Made by a program: the position numbers and the translations under genes. The notes beneath the pieces were generated by a model. It had not been told where the DNA came from. It made no database searches and saw nothing but the letters and a program-made list of their open reading frames with translations. This document shows, piece after piece, positions 1 to 5,711 of a DNA stretch of 7,292 bases. Position 1 is the stretch's first letter; each line of letters opens with the position of its first letter. Source of the DNA: a virus; IMG/VR virus record IMGVR_UViG_3300029650_000039, positions 298 to 7,589 of that record; one strand, 5' to 3'.

Positions 1-1658
1 AACATAGCATTAAATCTGTTTCGTAAAATATATATGTATCCGTCTTTAATAATTCCCCAACACTCATTGCCATTTGATGTGAAATTATCGTGATTTGAAA
101 TGATTTCTTCACGCAGGTAATCATATGCACGTCTATTAACGTTCAGCATATCCTTGGTCTGCAAATACGGTTTAATATCATCTATACTGATTCGTACACC
201 GTCATTAAATATCCAACGTTCAGACAGCTCATCAGCCGTTAATAATGCCGCCGCTGACGCAATTTGTTTGTCCGTTGCCTCTGTGTTATCTTCCAACAGT
301 TTAATGTATTTTTCGTGCAATGCTCGTGCCTCGGCGATATTTCCGGTTAAATTATCAATAAATTCTTTACCGGCATGACCGTAATTCGCTTGTATCGTTC
401 TGCAAAATTCTCTCGGATTTTTGAAAAACTTACCGCCGTTACATTCGATTTCAATAACACGGTTGACTGCACCGCCACCCGATGACATTGATGTTATCGG
501 GCGTTCGCCTGTGGTTATAATACAATTTCGCCACGTCTTAATATTTTGTATACCACCGTCTTTTTTACCGCGTAAACGTCCTGTACCCTCGCACAGACGA
601 TATATTATATCATCAAAATCCGAACGTTTATTCAGTATCTGCAATTCGTCCATACATAACGGCAGTGAATTTAAACACGCCGCATATAATTCATTACCTA
701 CATCAGTAGAATTGAATGTATAGGCATATTTACCGATAACCGGCTCAGCCCATACAGACACTGCCGCAAGTAGCGCAACCGATTTACCCGTTTCTGTATC
801 GCCCCATAGGTGAACGAAGAACGGCAATGCTCCAAGCGGTTTTAACAGTACACTCGCAAAACTCGCCGCCATAACCATGCGAACAACTATATTACCGTTT
901 TTGCGGTAATCTCTGATTGTTTTAAGCCATTTTTCATAACTGCCGACCTCTCTTACCGAATTAAATAACTGTCTGAAACTGTCCTGTCCCTCAAACTCCA
1001 AATCTGATATATACGGTGCAAATTCTTTAAATCCTCTGCCTACCCAACCCATATGATCGCACGATTTCTTTTCGATTATTTTGTCGTAATTTATACTTTC
1101 AAAATCACTTAAAAACTGTACAAGTGCCTTTGCATTTTCTGATGTTACACCGACACCGTATTCAGCTAATTTTACGATTTTGTTCGCACTTGCAAGGTCA
1201 GAACGTGGGACGATTTTAGTTTTGTAATTTCGTCCCGGTCTGCCGTAAACAAGTTGCACACTTTCAACATCAGTATCTACATTTGAATATCTTGTTATCA
1301 TAAATATCGGGTGTGGACACGCCGTCACTTTTTCGTTGAACTGTCCTTTAAACCTATACACTCCGTCATCAGTTGCTATCCATTCGCCTGTGTCCCACAT
1401 TATTGCAGTGCCACTGAACTCCATTACGTTGCCGTAAACAATGTTTTGACCCTTTTGCGCTCTGACGTAGTTTTTGAATTGCGTCCGAAAGTTTGATACA
1501 TCAAGTTCTTTCGCTTTATCCGCCATTTGCGCCACAAGCTGACCTTTGATGAACTCGTTGCCGTCAGCTTGGTCTATTATCCATTGAAACGGTTTTGATG
1601 ATATTAAAAAATCGTCCTTACTGAAATCGGGTATCGTTATTCTGTTTTCATTCTCCAT
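1..1658 (-). CDS. DUF927-type P-loop replicative helicase / replication initiator (Cch / SaPI-Rep-like); N-terminal 552 codons, C-terminus off window
   Basis: The minus frame is open from ATG 1658..1656 to the window edge (last full codon 5..3). It is absent from the ORF track because no stop lies in the window. SD AAGGA (1672..1668) sits 9 nt upstream of the ATG. I verified by hand translation that 839..780 encodes PLGALPFFVHLWGDTETGKS, so Walker A GDTETGKS is at 803..780. A Walker-B-like LPLCMDEL and an IITTGERP motif lie downstream. The family name is from motif recall, not a search. Confidence 0.8.
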   Translation of the reverse strand, partial: MENENRITIPDFSKDDFLISSKPFQWIIDQADGNEFIKGQLVAQMADKAKELDVSNFRTQFKNYVRAQKGQNIVYGNVMEFSGTAIMWDTGEWIATDDGVYRFKGQFNEKVTACPHPIFMITRYSNVDTDVESVQLVYGRPGRNYKTKIVPRSDLASANKIVKLAEYGVGVTSENAKALVQFLSDFESINYDKIIEKKSCDHMGWVGRGFKEFAPYISDLEFEGQDSFRQLFNSVREVGSYEKWLKTIRDYRKNGNIVVRMVMAASFASVLLKPLGALPFFVHLWGDTETGKSVALLAAVSVWAEPVIGKYAYTFNSTDVGNELYAACLNSLPLCMDELQILNKRSDFDDIIYRLCEGTGRLRGKKDGGIQNIKTWRNCIITTGERPITSMSSGGGAVNRVIEIECNGGKFFKNPREFCRTIQANYGHAGKEFIDNLTGNIAEARALHEKYIKLLEDNTEATDKQIASAAALLTADELSERWIFNDGVRISIDDIKPYLQTKDMLNVNRRAYDYLREEIISNHDNFTSNGNECWGIIKDGYIYILRNRFNAM

Positions 1659-1680
1659 AGCACCCATTCCTTAACCTATA

Positions 1681-2244
1681 TTAAAACGGCAAATCTTCTT
1701 CCGATTCGTTCTCATCATCAAATCCGCTTGTATCAAATCCCGATGCACTTCCGTCAAGCAGTTTATCCTGTGGAATTTCGGACATTTCCAATCCTTTGAT
1801 ACTTCTTACCGCTCTTGCCTTAGTCGCCCATTTTTTTTGATCGTTCATCATGTATTGTTCACGTCCGAACAATACACCGATTTTCTTACCCTTAAGCGTT
1901 TTTTCGTCCCAATTCCATGTATATCCCACATTGCTTTCTTCAATACAGGTAATCATACCTTTGAAAAACGGTAACTGCTTACCCTCAAAACCTTGTCTAA
2001 ACAGTCCGCCGTTGTTCCACTTTGCGTCCGTTCCGTTTCTTTCAATGTTCGCCGCATATAGATTACCGTAATGGTCTTTATATTCGCCCTCTGCAATATC
2101 CAGTTGCAATACCAATTGTTCCTTACCGGTGCTTGCTTTAACAACTTTCGCGCCTTTAATTTCACAGATATATTTACCTGCCGGCAATGTTCTGCTCTCT
2201 CCTGTGTATGCTTGTGCTTCATCATATCCCTGTATCTTCTTCAT
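1681..2244 (-). CDS. DUF669-like phage ssDNA-binding protein (cognate SSB of the Sak4-like ATPase)
   Basis: 187-aa ORF with ATG at 2244. Strong SD AAGGAGGAAA (2260..2251) with a 6-nt spacer. The N-terminal LPAGKY-type motif is as I recall for DUF669. The C-terminus DDENESEEDLPF mimics the acidic DDD(I/L)PF tip of bacterial SSB. It lies directly after the Sak4-like gene, which is the usual synteny. Confidence 0.75.
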   Translation of the reverse strand: MKKIQGYDEAQAYTGESRTLPAGKYICEIKGAKVVKASTGKEQLVLQLDIAEGEYKDHYGNLYAANIERNGTDAKWNNGGLFRQGFEGKQLPFFKGMITCIEESNVGYTWNWDEKTLKGKKIGVLFGREQYMMNDQKKWATKARAVRSIKGLEMSEIPQDKLLDGSASGFDTSGFDDENESEEDLPF

Positions 2245-2866
2245 TAATTGTTTCCTCCTTATTCATTCCATAGTATTCTCTTATTCTTTCGTCAACTGCT
2301 TTCAAATCGTTATCAATCTCTAAATCAAACATATCCATAGGCGACTTGCACGTTGTATGTCCGTCTGATTGCGTTATGAAACTATGACTTTGACCGTCAG
2401 CTTGACATAGTAAAACGATTGAAAACAGTCCCTCAACTGTCAACTGATTGTCCAACATTTTACCGATTGTTTTAGCCTTGATTTTACCGTTTTCGGTCTG
2501 CTCGCAATGGTGCAGAAAATACACGATTGTATCATCAGGCAATCCCTCGATGATGAATGTAATCATCTTTTGAAAACGTACCGCCATATCGGTAAACTTC
2601 GCATAGCCTGTTTCTTTTGCACGATTGAACGAATCGAACGCCAACAGATATTGACTGTCGTCTATAACGTATCGCTTATACTGCTTTTTACTTAATTCTT
2701 TGGCAATAACATTGTATGTAGCCTTTTTGATTGAATTTAACTTTTTGCGGAACGGAAGTGGTTTACTTGCCACATTAAATATTACCAAATCATCTGCGTC
2801 AAAATTTCTCATACTTGCGCTTTTTCCGCTACCGCTTTCACCCATAATTAAAACAGGTATTCCCAT
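2222..2866 (-). CDS. Sak4-like AAA_24 / RecA-fold ATPase (single-strand annealing accessory)
   Basis: The track start at 2875 is a GTG lying inside the SD. ATG 2866..2864 is preceded by AAGGAG (2880..2875) with an 8-nt spacer, giving MGIPVLIMGESGSGKS... with Walker A GESGSGKS and a Walker-B-like RYVIDD. The TGA stop at 2224..2222 overlaps the next gene by 23 nt. Confidence 0.8.
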   Translation of the reverse strand: MGIPVLIMGESGSGKSASMRNFDADDLVIFNVASKPLPFRKKLNSIKKATYNVIAKELSKKQYKRYVIDDSQYLLAFDSFNRAKETGYAKFTDMAVRFQKMITFIIEGLPDDTIVYFLHHCEQTENGKIKAKTIGKMLDNQLTVEGLFSIVLLCQADGQSHSFITQSDGHTTCKSPMDMFDLEIDNDLKAVDERIREYYGMNKEETINEEDTGI

Positions 2867-2878
2867 ATGTATCACTCC

Positions 2879-3355
2879 TTATTTTATGCTCATATTATTT
2901 CTTTCGACTAACTCTGCATGCGGAATATCAAAACCGCCCTGCAACATTCCCTTGATGACCGTTTTGTTTGGCTCCGGTCTTTTGAACGTCAACAGGTCGT
3001 TATTGTTCTTCATTGCATAATCAATAAATTCGTCATCAACTTCCACTGCTGTTGATTTTCTGTAACTTATCGCCACTTTTGAAGTAGCGAATTTATTACC
3101 TTGCAATGTTCGATTTACGAAATTCTTCAAACTTTCCGCTCTATGCTCCAACGTCTTGCGACGTTCCGCAAGCGATTTTTCTTCTTCACGGATAGCCTTA
3201 CTCTCAGCTACAAGATTTTTATACCATAGTGCTACGTTTTCAATTTTTTCTTCCTTTTGCATTTGCAGTTCTTCAAACGCTTCGTAATCCTTTATTTCGC
3301 CTGTTTCTTCATCTATCAGTGACAACATTTCGTTGTCTATTTCATATACGTTCAT
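2879..3355 (-). CDS. Siphovirus Gp157-family protein (Sipho_Gp157)
   Basis: 158-aa ORF with ATG at 3355 and an AAAGGAAAAA SD. It has an acidic N-terminus and a coiled-coil core, ...EEKSLAERRKTLEHRAESLKNF.... The C-terminal ...KRPEPNKTVIKGMLQGG... pattern matches my recollection of PF05565. Its TAA stop (2881..2879) overlaps the SD of the next gene. Confidence 0.75.
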   Translation of the reverse strand: MNVYEIDNEMLSLIDEETGEIKDYEAFEELQMQKEEKIENVALWYKNLVAESKAIREEEKSLAERRKTLEHRAESLKNFVNRTLQGNKFATSKVAISYRKSTAVEVDDEFIDYAMKNNNDLLTFKRPEPNKTVIKGMLQGGFDIPHAELVERNNMSIK

Positions 3356-3384
3356 TTGACTTTTTCCTTTCTGTATGTTAAAAT
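3356..3384 (+). promoter_or_regulatory. Sigma-A-type promoter with extended -10, antisense to the operon
   Basis: TTGACT (3356-3361), a 17-nt spacer, then TGt-TAAAAT (3376-3384). A second TTGTGT-TTTAAT motif lies at 3389-3400. The promoter sits over the gp157 SD and start codon on the opposite strand. Confidence 0.6.
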
Positions 3385-3390
3385 ATCATT

Positions 3391-3450
3391 GTGTTTTAAT
3401 ATATGCCGTTAAACGGTATTACGGGGGAATTTAATTCCCCCGCTTTTTTA
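3391..3450 (+). ncRNA. Candidate ~60-nt antisense sRNA (as-1)
   Basis: Predicted TSS is about 3391. There is a small hairpin ATGCCG-TTAAA-CGGTAT, followed by a strong intrinsic terminator. The RNA would be complementary to the intercistronic mRNA between the 233-aa gene and gp157. Confidence 0.45.
3423..3449 (+). terminator. Intrinsic terminator, plus-strand specific
   Basis: The 19-nt near-palindrome GGGGGAATTTAATTCCCCC (3423-3441) can form an 8-bp stem with a 3-nt loop. It is followed by GC and then T6 (3444-3449). On the minus strand the hairpin is followed by GTAATACC with no U-tract, so it should not terminate the operon efficiently. Confidence 0.75.
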
Positions 3451-4152
3451 TTATTCAATTATATGTACGTTTTGTACGTCTGCAAGTAATTCTCTTAGCT
3501 TGTCCGCAACATTTTTTACTGCCTCACATTTCCAAGCTCCGCCGTCCGCCTCGAACAGTGCTGCTCTGCCGTCTTTAAGTCTGATTAAGAAATCACTTTC
3601 CGGTTGTTCAACCTCTAAAAATGTTCTGTATGGTTTCAACGTAACAATCGGCTTAATTCTCTGTTCACCTACCAACTGAATACCACTCTTGACGGTTGCC
3701 GATTGCGTTATACCGTCATCTTTCGTCTGAACCGATTGTTGGTCTGTTATGTTACCAAGCAATTGTACAAGATAATCTCTGTCCTCTGTCGGTGCAAAAC
3801 GTGATTTTAGACAGATAATCATATCTTCGATACTTATATAATCGTTGAAATCGAAACTGATGAATTTTGCATATGTAACATATGGTCTTTCACGTTGCAT
3901 ATCACATCTGACCGTACCCAATACATCAACCTGCTCCGGTGATACCACTCTCACGAATAATGGATTGTCATAATTGTTCATTTCTTGTTTCATCATAGTG
4001 ACTAAACCGCTTAGACTTGATAACTTAGTTGTATCAACCAATCTGTCCTCAATTCTGCGCAGTTGAAAGTCCGAAAACATGCCATAGTCGGTCTTAATCA
4101 CCTTTGGTCCTGTCATTTCTTCAATTTTTTCAATAAAACTTCTATCAATCAT
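3451..4152 (-). CDS. Phage protein of unknown function (possibly DUF2303/YfdQ-like; unverified)
   Basis: 233-aa ORF with ATG at 4152. Strong SD AAGGAGGA has a 7-nt spacer and lies 18 nt after the upstream stop. Composition is protein-like. The ...LKPYRTFLEVEQPESDFLIRL...FEADGGAW... segment reminds me of DUF2303, but I cannot verify that. Confidence 0.85.
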   Translation of the reverse strand: MIDRSFIEKIEEMTGPKVIKTDYGMFSDFQLRRIEDRLVDTTKLSSLSGLVTMMKQEMNNYDNPLFVRVVSPEQVDVLGTVRCDMQRERPYVTYAKFISFDFNDYISIEDMIICLKSRFAPTEDRDYLVQLLGNITDQQSVQTKDDGITQSATVKSGIQLVGEQRIKPIVTLKPYRTFLEVEQPESDFLIRLKDGRAALFEADGGAWKCEAVKNVADKLRELLADVQNVHIIE

Positions 4153-4170
4153 TTCTTTATCCTCCTTAAA

Positions 4171-4527
4171 TTACATTGCTTTCTTAATTGCTATAATCTT
4201 TGGCTCGTCTTGCTCCGAGCCGTCTAATGCCATTTGTCCCGGTACTTGTGGCAACATTTCGACTAATGCTTTGCCCTCATCCGATTCCGTCAAATACAAC
4301 GCACTTTCAATGTTGTTCGTTGGTGTCAATGTTGACTTAACCTGTGTTGACATTTTGATGTTCTGTCTTTCGCTGTCCGGCTTTAGTGACAACGTCAATG
4401 TTATCTTTCTTACTGCGTCCGCTTTGGTGTTTAGGTCGGCGATATTATCAACGACCTTGCTTAGCTCATAGTCCAATCTTTCACCGATTGCGCCACGAGC
4501 GACCTCTAATAAATTTGCATTACCCAC
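4171..4527 (-). CDS. Hypothetical phage protein (118 aa), GTG start
   Basis: An in-frame TAA at 4533..4531 caps the ORF, and the only start near its 5' end is GTG 4527. The SD is only purine-rich and weak (AAGAAAGAAA), unlike the GGAGG-type SDs of its neighbours. A TTG codon 17 codons downstream is an alternative start. Function is unknown. Confidence 0.7.
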   Translation of the reverse strand: MGNANLLEVARGAIGERLDYELSKVVDNIADLNTKADAVRKITLTLSLKPDSERQNIKMSTQVKSTLTPTNNIESALYLTESDEGKALVEMLPQVPGQMALDGSEQDEPKIIAIKKAM

Positions 4528-4544
4528 TTTTTATCATTTCTTTC

Positions 4545-4572
4545 TTGATTTTTTATTTTTTTGTGGTATAAT
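4545..4572 (+). promoter_or_regulatory. Sigma-A-type promoter with extended -10, antisense to the operon
   Basis: TTGATT (4545-4550), a 16-nt spacer, then TGg-TATAAT (4564-4572). It lies over the 5'UTR of the 118-aa gene on the opposite strand. Confidence 0.6.
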
Positions 4573-4581
4573 ATATGTAAA

Positions 4582-4599
4582 ACATAGATTAATCTATGT
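4582..4599. repeat. 18-bp perfect palindrome ACATAGATTAATCTATGT
   Basis: Read directly from the sequence. It lies at about +3 to +20 of the 4545-4572 promoter. Confidence 0.9.
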
Positions 4600-4609
4600 A
4601 ATTACCTTT

Positions 4610-4647
4610 GACCGTTTCGAGTTGCACCTCATACGGTCTCTTTTTTT
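4610..4647 (+). terminator. Intrinsic terminator, plus-strand specific
   Basis: GACCGT (4610-4615) pairs with ACGGTC (4633-4638). An inner GAG/CTC pairing closes a hexaloop. TC and then T7 (4641-4647) follow. On the minus strand there is no U-tract after the hairpin. Confidence 0.65.
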
Positions 4648-4889
4648 ATGCTGATTTTGCAATGGCAGCCTGCTCCAAGATTATCATTGCTTTTGTACAT
4701 TTCTGTTTGCTTAAAGGTTTCTTCTGCGTATATCGAACAGAATTTTAATAGTGTATCGCCAGTTTCCTTGTATTGATACATTGCTCTGAAAATCTTGCAC
4801 GCTTGCTCTATTGTTTCCGCCTCGATGATTATCCAGCCACCCTTAAATGGCTGTCCCTCACTGCCGAATGTAATGTAATAGTTATTCAT
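4629..4889 (-). CDS. Small hypothetical phage protein (86 aa)
   Basis: ATG at 4889 with SD GGGAGGTGA about 7-8 nt upstream. The N-terminus YITFGSEGQPFKGGW... resembles a common small phage protein family of unknown function (recall only). Confidence 0.8.
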   Translation of the reverse strand: MNNYYITFGSEGQPFKGGWIIIEAETIEQACKIFRAMYQYKETGDTLLKFCSIYAEETFKQTEMYKSNDNLGAGCHCKISIKKETV

Positions 4890-4895
4890 TCTCTT

Positions 4896-4991
4896 TCACC
4901 TCCCAATCATATTCATCATTATAAATTCTGTCATAATCAGTATCGCACTAAATGCAACAACCGATATAGCATACTTAATTTTTTCAGACAT
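4896..4991 (-). CDS. 31-aa hydrophobic membrane peptide (not in ORF track)
   Basis: Hand translation gives MSEKIKYAISVVAFSAILIMTEFIMMNMIGR*. SD GAGG lies 6 nt upstream. The start overlaps the upstream stop (ATGTCTGA, stop at 4986..4984). Its own TGA lies inside the SD GGGAGGTGA of the next gene. It exactly fills an otherwise empty gap. Confidence 0.6.
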   Translation of the reverse strand: MSEKIKYAISVVAFSAILIMTEFIMMNMIGR

Positions 4992-5187
4992 TGCACACCT
5001 CGTTTCTTTTTACGATGTCCAAAACTTGCTTAACCTGTCTGTCGAACTGCTCCGGTGTTAATTCACCATCCGCCTTACGATATTTTTTATTACATACAAT
5101 ATCTCTTGCCACTTCTGCTAAAATTCTTATACCATCTATGTTCATAACTGACATATTTCGGCGAATTTCTCTTATTAACTTAAACAT
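4984..5187 (-). CDS. Small hypothetical protein (67 aa from ATG 5187; 71 aa if GTG 5199)
   Basis: The track ORF is 4984..5199, starting at a GTG. ATG 5187..5185 overlaps the stop of the 36-aa ORF (ATGTTTAA), suggesting termination-reinitiation. Neither start has a strong SD. Confidence 0.7.
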   Translation of the reverse strand: MFKLIREIRRNMSVMNIDGIRILAEVARDIVCNKKYRKADGELTPEQFDRQVKQVLDIVKRNEVCNV

Positions 5188-5290
5188 CTTTTTTACCACG
5201 CTTTCGTTTCTTCTCGTCCTCTTTCATCAGCTTTAAACTGATGATTAATCCCACACCGAAACTAATCAGCGCAATTCCTATTGTGTTCAT
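5180..5290 (-). CDS. 36-aa membrane peptide with a basic tail (not in ORF track)
   Basis: Hand translation gives MNTIGIALISFGVGLIISLKLMKEDEKKRKRGKKDV*. SD GAGGA (5301..5297) has a 6-nt spacer. The peptide has one transmembrane-like helix followed by a highly charged C-terminus. Confidence 0.6.
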   Translation of the reverse strand: MNTIGIALISFGVGLIISLKLMKEDEKKRKRGKKDV

Positions 5291-5312
5291 TTGTTTTCCT
5301 CATTTCTCTTAC

Positions 5313-5420
5313 CTCACAGGCACACAGGAGCCGTCCGCACCTACAGATTTCATTAAAATTTTTTAGGTTTGGTCTACTATTTTACGGATAATATGCGAGC
5401 GGCTCGTATCTGCCTGTGAG
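5313..5420. repeat. Long imperfect inverted repeat (GC-rich arms, AT-rich core)
   Basis: CTCACAGGCA (5313-5322) pairs perfectly with TGCCTGTGAG (5411-5420). After a 5x5 internal loop, GAGCCGTCCGCA (5328-5339) pairs with TGCGAGCGGCTC (5394-5405) with one wobble and one mismatch. The core 5340-5393 is AT-rich (ATTTCATTAAAATTTTTTAGGTTT...). Confidence 0.85.
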
Positions 5421-5429
5421 ATTTAATTG

Positions 5430-5711
5430 TTATGCCGATAAACCTAATTTTTTAAGTTTATCTCTGCGTTTTTCAAGTTCTGCAACATCAATGCCCCACA
5501 CTTCATATGCAACTTCGGTATTGATTGTGTGCAACTGCGATGTTTTGACATCTTGCTTTATCTGTTCTTCCTGTACGGCTTTCTTGTACTTTGTCAGTGC
5601 CGCAGAACCCAAACCACCGAACAGCTCCTTGATTTCCTTGTTGCCGATTTCGGGGTATCGGTAATATATGTACAATGCCGTATCAATGTCAACTATTCTC
5701 TTTACTTTCAT
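5430..5711 (-). CDS. Putative HTH DNA-binding early regulator (93 aa), first gene of the minus operon
   Basis: ATG at 5711 with SD AGGTGA (5723..5718) and a 6-nt spacer. The segment IGNKEIKELFGGLGSAALTKYKK reads as helix-turn-helix. The gene lies immediately downstream of the divergent promoter region. The functional call is inference. Confidence 0.8.
   Translation of the reverse strand: MKVKRIVDIDTALYIYYRYPEIGNKEIKELFGGLGSAALTKYKKAVQEEQIKQDVKTSQLHTINTEVAYEVWGIDVAELEKRRDKLKKLGLSA

Follow-up and report, generated by a model that had tools for sequence, protein, structure and literature searches.

The Intercistronic Gap and Its Inverted Repeat

The window, by which we mean the whole stretch of viral DNA that was analyzed, is a 7,292-nt fragment of an IMG/VR virus record, and its operon genes lie on the minus strand. 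Read along that strand, a 93-aa early gene is followed by a 139-nt gap, a 36-aa peptide gene, genes for 71-aa and 86-aa proteins, phrog_997 and phrog_1029. The operon continues with Gp157/Gam-like, Sak4-like, DUF669 SSB-like, and DUF927 primase-helicase genes, the last of which is cut by the window end. According to the ORF list, no other intercistronic gap of the minus-strand operon is as large as this one (5291–5429), as the initial annotation of this DNA had stated. The gap and its two bordering genes comprise the following features, listed in the direction of the minus strand:

5430..5711, minus strand: 93-aa early gene, upstream of the gap (ORF list and relatives)
5421..5429, minus strand: AT-rich 9-nt spacer from the stop of the 93-aa gene to the hairpin
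5312..5420, minus (sense) strand: whole hairpin element, 109 nt (covariance model R1 and fold)
5394..5420, minus strand: 5' arm of the RNA stem, CUCACAGGCAGAUACGAGCCGCUCGCA (repeat search and alignment)
5340..5393, minus strand: variable AT-rich apical region, with two small local hairpins in the window copy (fold)
5313..5339, minus strand: 3' arm of the RNA stem, UGCGGACGGCUCCUGUGUGCCUGUGAG, with almost no variation across the family
5291..5311, minus strand: polypurine spacer with the SD (UAAGAGAAAUGAGGAAAACAA), unpaired, ahead of the AUG at 5290 (fold)
5180..5290, minus strand: 36-aa single-TM peptide gene with a basic tail, downstream of the gap

A repeat search placed the two arms at 5313–5339 and 5394–5420; each is 27 nt long, they are 81% complementary, and a 54-nt AT-rich core separates them. 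The outer 10 bp pair perfectly (CTCACAGGCA and TGCCTGTGAG), which confirms the earlier description of an inverted repeat with perfect 10-bp outer arms around an AT-rich core of about 54 nt. That the arms stand out as GC-rich against an AT-rich genome is likewise borne out, with a GC content of ~67% in the arms and ~28% in the core (both counted from the sequence) and of ~35–40% in the window. At a minimum length of 16 nt and within 200 nt, the whole window holds just two inverted repeats, and the repeat at 5313–5420 is the better paired of them. When the gap was folded as RNA, the minus strand reached −46.4 kcal/mol (z = −6.4) and the plus strand −41.8 kcal/mol (z = −5.1), and on either strand 0 of 200 shuffles was as stable. 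Based on these values, the inverted repeat exceeds what chance would produce. The polypurine/SD spacer at 5291–5311 is single-stranded in both the MFE and the centroid structure. Another operon gap, at 4880–4995, was considered as a further processing site and is unstructured (z = 0.16).

The inverted repeat is an un-annotated RNA motif that corresponds to no Rfam 15 family at or above the gathering threshold. In the window, no Rfam 15 family overlaps the gap at E ≤ 10, and two relatives gave only weak matches to generic long hairpins (miRNA precursors) far below threshold. ARAGORN found no tRNA or tmRNA in the window, and a blastn search of the INPHARED phages returned one irrelevant partial match only. 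A small ORF within the hairpin was considered and rejected, given that ATG-led frames, on our reading of the alignment, vary among the variants and are absent from the commonest type. A role as a sense-strand terminator was rejected as well, the stem having no U-tract after it. We note separately a promoter-like site, TTGACA-18-TATATT (11 of 12 consensus positions), at window positions 5692–5663 of the minus strand within the 93-aa ORF; it may be due to chance, or it may be an internal start for the downstream message.

A Family of Copies at a Constant Site

The element is present in about 70 related IMG/VR phage loci, with one copy per genome. These loci were retrieved in three ways, that is, through the flanking proteins, through a 15-nt word of the 3' arm, and through the start of the peptide gene. 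The 3'-arm word gave 92 matching stretches, 70 of which also have the 5' arm by regular expression and are nearly all true copies; the rest are mostly chance matches. There are 31 distinct copies, 102–122 nt in length, and the covariance model R1 was built on these 31, the window copy among them. On the window element the model scores 101.3 bits on the minus strand versus 43 bits on the plus strand. The near-invariance of the 3' arm is partly a matter of ascertainment, because the search pattern sat in that arm: the DNA-pattern search fixed the outer 3' arm and thus censored variation there. The protein-based retrievals are free of this bias and returned the same variants. The family is shallow, with an effective sequence number of 1.34, and conservation therefore partly reflects plain relatedness.

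Both the slot and the orientation of the element are constant. The stop of a small early gene lies upstream of it and the RBS of the following gene downstream, with small HTH regulator genes on one side and replication/recombination genes on the other, and across the family loci the hairpin lies 9–17 nt past the upstream stop and 5–12 nt ahead of the SD. Both flanking genes vary. In relatives, the upstream slot is occupied by at least four unrelated small proteins, of 93 aa, 62–64 aa ("MALEKPSYRDNLERIK...AREMS"), 66–67 aa, and 80 aa. Several of these read as HTH or excisionase-like, with XRE-like (cro/cI-like) genes farther upstream, all such calls being our reading of the sequences and not the outcome of a family search. 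The downstream slot holds either the TM peptide, in two variants, or a 218-aa GNAxV-repeat protein, followed by the replication/recombination genes. Given the constant slot amid differing neighbors, the element marks the boundary between regulatory genes and the replication module.

Two observations concern the downstream side. In L150, L162, L177, and other loci, a 217–218-aa protein that consists mostly of GNAxV-type short repeats (MKKYELTDE...) lies between the hairpin and the peptide. A second, small conserved hairpin, GA(C/G)TCCCTAAAACAGGGA(C)TC, is found after the 218-aa gene and, in L215 and L165, before the peptide RBS; in L165-type phages the 218-aa gene is gone and the small hairpin is kept directly after the big one.

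The apical 50–70 nt exist in three to four unrelated versions (alignment A1) that replace one another wholesale between lineages. Thus, the apical region is not a conserved functional core, and the constant feature is the ~26-bp duplex with its small mismatches. A motif within the apex, UUAUCCGUAAAAUAG, is conserved in most copies. No promoter conserved across contexts was found in the apex or just upstream of it. As for the arms, the 5'-arm variant CTTGC tracks certain upstream genes, and the 3'-arm variant GGTCTATG occurs mostly with the downstream 218-aa gene. Nearly all combinations of arm variants exist, which indicates that crossovers take place inside the element and that it also acts as a module joint.

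Outside this family, two arm patterns gave 0 matches in 185,579 species genomes, and searches with the helicase and the HTH protein found matches only in prophages of uncultured Clostridia MAGs. Ten distinct sampled relatives of the 93-aa protein (53% identical; L010–L081) are without the hairpin, as are the 59–68% identical relatives of the 62-aa HTH protein (L229, L231–L235). In these distant relatives of the two upstream genes, the gene that comes next adjoins directly, and such homologs consequently add no covariation.

Covariation and the Selected Strand

The stem comprises 24–25 pairs over 26–27 positions. Over the 24 pairs of the basal stem in the 31 distinct copies, 99.3% of the cells are paired on the sense (window minus) strand, a level that was matched in 0 of 500 column shuffles, and pairing drops to 28–56% when the 3' partner is slid by one to three columns. 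RNAalifold on its own predicts essentially the same stem. Simple arithmetic on the alignment puts pairing on the opposite (antisense) strand at ~86%. G.U or U.G variants occur at 13 stem positions, where they are often the majority allele (e.g., in 19, 18, 25, and 18 of the 31 copies), whereas A.C variants, which are the wobbles of the other strand, occur at three positions and in no more than 3 of the 31 sequences. A two-sided sign test on positions, by our own arithmetic, gives p ~0.02 for G.U versus A.C. Relative to the commonest pair, both sides have changed at positions 16, 18, and 26. Stepwise series are seen as well, running A-U, G.U, G-C at positions 4, 16, 17, and 18 and U-A, U.G, C-G at positions 20 and 26. 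The sense strand folds better by a mean of 11 kcal/mol, and it does so in 31 of 32 copies. Within the IMG/VR family, pairing is never seen at two positions, namely position 11, an invariant G.G, and position 15, which is A.C, C.C, A.A, C.A, or C.U.

The window copy illustrates how the pairing is maintained. Its 5' arm carries six changes from the family consensus, five of them at paired positions, and four of these five still pair with the unchanged 3' arm. It had been noted initially that the sequence does not discriminate between the strands; this holds for the inner 12-bp arm of the window copy, where position 22 is C.A/G.U and position 23 is U.G/A.C, but the family alignment does discriminate. 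A covariation analysis of homologs, which the initial annotation had named as a check, has now yielded both compensatory changes and an excess of G.U over A.C on the sense strand. Together, this bias and the covariation indicate a selected structure on the sense strand. Judging from the alignment, selection on the sense strand, as RNA or at least as one strand, keeps the pairing, and we consider it highly probable that the structure is an RNA-level feature of that strand.

Model R1 also finds a diverged copy at L227:1118–1223 (31 bits, E ~5e-5), in a prophage of an uncultured Clostridia MAG whose helicase is 73% identical. The context is the same: a 15-nt spacer separates the hairpin from the gene of the homologous 62-aa protein upstream, and a GNSSV-repeat protein is encoded downstream. 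Most positions of the 25-bp stem of L227 differ from the consensus with pairing kept, and we count about eight compensatory changes involving both sides plus three G.U pairs on the sense strand. Position 15 is still mismatched, and the G.G at position 11 has become U-A.

Empty Sites and the Location of the Origin

In 23 loci the flanks match those of occupied loci and the hairpin is missing. The junction common to 22 of them reads ...CAAGCTCACAGG joined to ATAAAGAGAGG... (in short form, CTCACAGG joined to ATAAAGAGAGG), and that of the remaining locus, L214, reads ...CCTTGCAGGCA joined to CAAGTGAAAG.... Both junctions retain 8–11 nt of the left arm, and from their sequences they look like two independent imprecise deletions. 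Among the relatives without the element is L217, from a provirus record of 36.9 kb with 91% completeness. Its proteins are nearly those of the window, with amino acid identities of 98% for the helicase, 97% for the SSB-like protein, 99% for Sak4, and 100% for both the 71-aa protein and the 36-aa peptide. When five "empty" records were searched for the element, including that of L217 and one that is 100% complete, no copy was found; as a positive control, the same search in five occupied records found exactly one copy in each. Because 23 relatives have an empty site, including one with a 97–100% identical replication module, the element is dispensable. The repeat exists, is conserved at one position in a phage family, and is accessory.

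These findings bear directly on the suggestion that the repeat is a replication origin, and more generally on a function at the DNA level, whether as an origin or cruciform or as a single-strand priming hairpin for the DUF927 primase-helicase. GC-rich dyad arms around an AT-rich core in a replication operon do resemble such an element. Moreover, G.T pairing in single-stranded DNA could give a similar strand bias, and the strand asymmetry would equally fit a single-stranded DNA hairpin, although a function in double-stranded DNA predicts no strand bias at all. We nevertheless consider a DNA-level function very improbable. The element is neither indispensable nor co-inherited with the presumed initiator, in that L217 keeps the helicase, SSB, and Sak4 (97–99% amino acid identity) with no copy, and conversely many occupied loci have no DUF927 module in the 8–15 kb fetched. 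Genomes with an empty site argue against any essential replication role. The gap contains no iterons, short two-copy direct repeats being all that was found at 5200–5550, and in relatives a candidate with iterons and an AT-rich core adjoins the helicase gene instead. In L160, whose helicase is 98% identical to that of the window, the stretch directly after the helicase gene (L160:9240–9475) has GTCCCCA twice and the inverted TGGGGAC opposite, with an ~85-nt AT-rich core between them. The same arrangement, with GGGGCAGT three times, follows the helicase gene in a goat-gut prophage (L228:8432–8537). Going by these sequences, the replication origin lies more probably in the gap after the DUF927 helicase gene, and the origin reading of the inverted repeat is not supported. 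In the window's own record, a candidate origin after the helicase gene would fall just beyond the left end.

The empty sites also speak to a further reading from the initial annotation, in which the repeat serves as a structured 5' leader and controls the 36-aa membrane peptide, with a layout as in type I toxin mRNAs. The hairpin does end 22 nt before the start codon of the peptide ORF (5290) in the window, and the peptide consists of a TM helix and a basic tail. However, linkage is not obligate: 22 empty loci keep the peptide gene and its SD without the hairpin, and in other loci the 218-aa gene splits the hairpin from the peptide. The SD is also not occluded, since in the predicted fold the final 20 nt, among them the GAGGA SD, remain unpaired. 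With regard to an antisense RNA, no promoter-like site that could drive one was found within the gap or directed toward it. A leader of the type I toxin kind is thus disfavored, and we regard control of the peptide by the hairpin as most unlikely.

Presence and absence of the element at one site, together with two different empty junctions, could also be explained by a mobile or recombination-joint palindrome, either MITE/Correia-like or a PeSL-like module boundary, that is kept by spread or by module exchange. The 27-nt arms are TIR-like and the size of 102–122 bp is suitable; in addition, genes vary on both sides, and the arm variants re-assort, which implies internal crossovers. Yet there is one copy per genome in a constant slot and orientation, and the two arm patterns are absent from the 185,579 species genomes. 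On our own reading the flanks show no target-site duplication, and the 8–11 nt of left arm left at both empty junctions look like the product of deletion. The element therefore lacks the multiple copies, unrelated sites, and target duplications of MITE or Correia-like elements. Furthermore, compensatory and strand-biased evolution speaks for selection on an RNA fold, and we find maintenance by mobility or module exchange improbable.

A Candidate Processing Site in the Early Message

We favor, with moderate confidence, the hypothesis that the element is an RNase III-type intercistronic processing and stability signal of the early mRNA, a reading that rests on our analysis of structure and position. 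What stays constant in the element is at least 22 bp of duplex interrupted by small mismatches, and RNase III sites are expected to offer a duplex of some two helical turns or more (at least 20–22 bp) in which small internal mismatches are tolerated. The classic sites of Bacillus subtilis RNase III are stable stem-loops with small internal bulges (PMC4838370), and transcriptome-wide mapping has revealed stereotyped RNase III cleavage in duplexes, including those that close more than 100 nt (PMC11780869). In the early mRNA of phage SP82, Bs-RNase III sites have been described (Panganiban and Whiteley 1983, as related in PMC4838370), and the stability of SP82 mRNA depends on an RBS-like sequence (Hue et al. 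1995, as related in PMC7509114). The G.U/A.C bias, the covariation, and the energies of the predicted structure place the duplex on the sense strand, as an mRNA processing site would require. A host RNase III is encoded in the MAG with the diverged copy L227 (TIGR02191, 260 bits vs. a cut-off of 166), this MAG being the host of L227. The dispensability of the element, given the 23 empty-site loci, fits an accessory expression signal.

In the mechanism that we propose, the minus strand of the gap would specify a structured RNA that acts in cis as part of the polycistronic early mRNA. This RNA would form a rod of ~26 bp with a G.G at position 11 and an unpaired position 15, topped by a variable AT-rich cap and followed by the polypurine/SD sequence. 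The host's double-strand-specific RNase III would cut the long duplex and thereby split the upstream message, which encodes small regulators, from the downstream message for the peptide and the replication/recombination proteins. The two halves would then be free to differ in lifetime and translation, and the downstream product would begin with a remnant of the stem and a strong ribosome-binding site. Here we infer transcription through the element, RNase III cleavage, and an effect on expression. The initial annotation had offered, as one of its readings, a large structured RNA of the early transcript, such as a processing signal or an antitermination signal of the put or nut type. Its structural part is upheld on the sense strand by covariation and the G.U bias, and processing is what we would predict from that structure, whereas the put or nut flavor has found no support: a simple scan showed no sense-strand terminators downstream, and the sole constant part is a plain duplex.

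The same selection on a sense-strand RNA is also compatible with a passive decay barrier, that is, an uncut hairpin that blocks exonucleases, either 3'-to-5' for the benefit of the upstream message or, in the case of RNase J1, 5'-to-3' for that of the downstream message. If a promoter lies just upstream, the hairpin may act as a 5'-terminal stem-loop stabilizer. Its position 9–17 nt after the upstream stop and 5–12 nt before the SD would suit a barrier, and in several upstream spacers a −10-like hexamer stands 8 nt ahead of the stem (e.g., GTATAATCAAATAC). Against this, any rnc+ host would be expected to cut a duplex this long with RNase III, the differing upstream contexts have no conserved promoter in common, and the covariation of the outermost pairs implies that transcripts must start upstream of the stem. 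On balance we judge a purely passive barrier fairly unlikely.

Another class of candidates comprises cis-acting RNAs that control transcription, such as a processive antiterminator of the put, EAR, or conAn2 kind or an attenuator, at the immediate-early/delayed-early boundary. The location of the element, after cro-like/HTH genes and before replication genes, resembles the cro-nutR-tR1-cII arrangement of lambda. The invariant non-Watson-Crick positions and the conserved apical motif could be accounted for in this way, and conAn2 too has 20-bp inverted repeats around a central region (PMC8191782). Nonetheless, a simple scan of positions 1–5290 found no convincing intrinsic terminator on the sense strand downstream, the apex is swapped wholesale in some lineages while the duplex is kept, and relatives with the same downstream genes manage without the element. 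The architecture differs as well: put has two short stem-loops, and conAn2 spans 260–600 bp and acts with a partner protein (PMC8191782). We consider transcription control of this kind unlikely. In a separate comparison of layouts, the two adjacent stem-loops of put and the boxA plus 15-nt boxB hairpin of nut were looked for, and what was found is a single long rod with a variable apex.

One objection to processing by RNase III is that the G.G, position 15, and the UUAUCCGUAAAAUAG motif might mark a contact with a specific protein or with RNA polymerase. The rod would then serve as the recognition site for a new kind of cis-acting control device located at the immediate-early/delayed-early boundary of Clostridia phages, and it would so belong to an undescribed RNA class, which seems to us quite unlikely. 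Possibilities under that reading include a processive antitermination or RNA-polymerase-modifying RNA and a hairpin that is processed to a small regulatory or anti-defense RNA.

Whatever its exact role, the element is a covariation-supported RNA motif of a common family of human- and animal-gut Clostridia phages, and it marks a probable split point of the early message in these phages. To our knowledge, hardly any work has dealt with post-transcriptional control in phages of anaerobic Firmicutes. The natural pairs of hairpin-bearing and empty-site genomes with identical replication modules offer a ready comparison for the role of the signal. The analysis also corrects a tempting mis-annotation, in which a dyad with an AT-rich core is taken as an origin when the likelier origin lies after the helicase gene.

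Comparison with Known Systems

Several known elements share features with the one described here. The Correia elements of Neisseria are ~100–150 bp long with inverted ends of ~26 bp, they are co-transcribed with genes, and their hairpin is a target of RNase III. Our element is similar in size, in the length of its inverted ends, and in its placement among presumably co-transcribed genes. In contrast, Correia elements are multi-copy and have target duplications, whereas this element is single-copy with a fixed slot and orientation, and it is absent from the bacterial genomes searched outside the homologous prophage slot. The promoter-early stem-loops (PeSLs) of T4-type phages are conserved intergenic stem-loop cassettes found where neighboring genes shuffle. 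PeSLs, however, are multi-copy and bear promoters, whereas the element is single-copy and no conserved promoter was found in it.

Like the put sites of HK022 and the conAn2 RNA of Gram-positive conjugative plasmids, which has 20-bp inverted repeats (PMC8191782), the element would be cis-acting near the start of a long operon of a mobile element. The differences are that put is made of two short stem-loops, that conAn2 is 260–600 bp long and needs ConAn1 (PMC8191782), and that no sense terminators were found downstream here.

The closer parallels are with phage RNase III sites. The early precursor RNA of T7 is cut by RNase III at five intercistronic sites, and RNase III is helpful to T7 but non-essential (PMC4858673). 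Similar to the T7 early-mRNA sites (R0.3–R1.3, e.g., R1.1), the element is an intercistronic hairpin of a presumed early message that has small internal mismatches and is accessory. The T7 sites are ~60 nt long, have a defined internal loop, and occur several times in one operon, in contrast to the single element of ~105 nt seen here, in which a 26-bp rod bears a large variable apex. There is no sequence similarity between the two, and cleavage of our element is a prediction.

SP82 is an unrelated phage of a different host class (Clostridia here), and its sequence is unrelated too. The SP82 stabilizer is reportedly a polypurine stretch on the downstream cleavage product, which it protects. Despite these differences, the arrangement in SP82 resembles that proposed here, with the early transcript of a Firmicutes phage in which a stem-loop is followed by an SD-like polypurine sequence, which after our hairpin is UAAGAGAAAUGAGGAAAAC.
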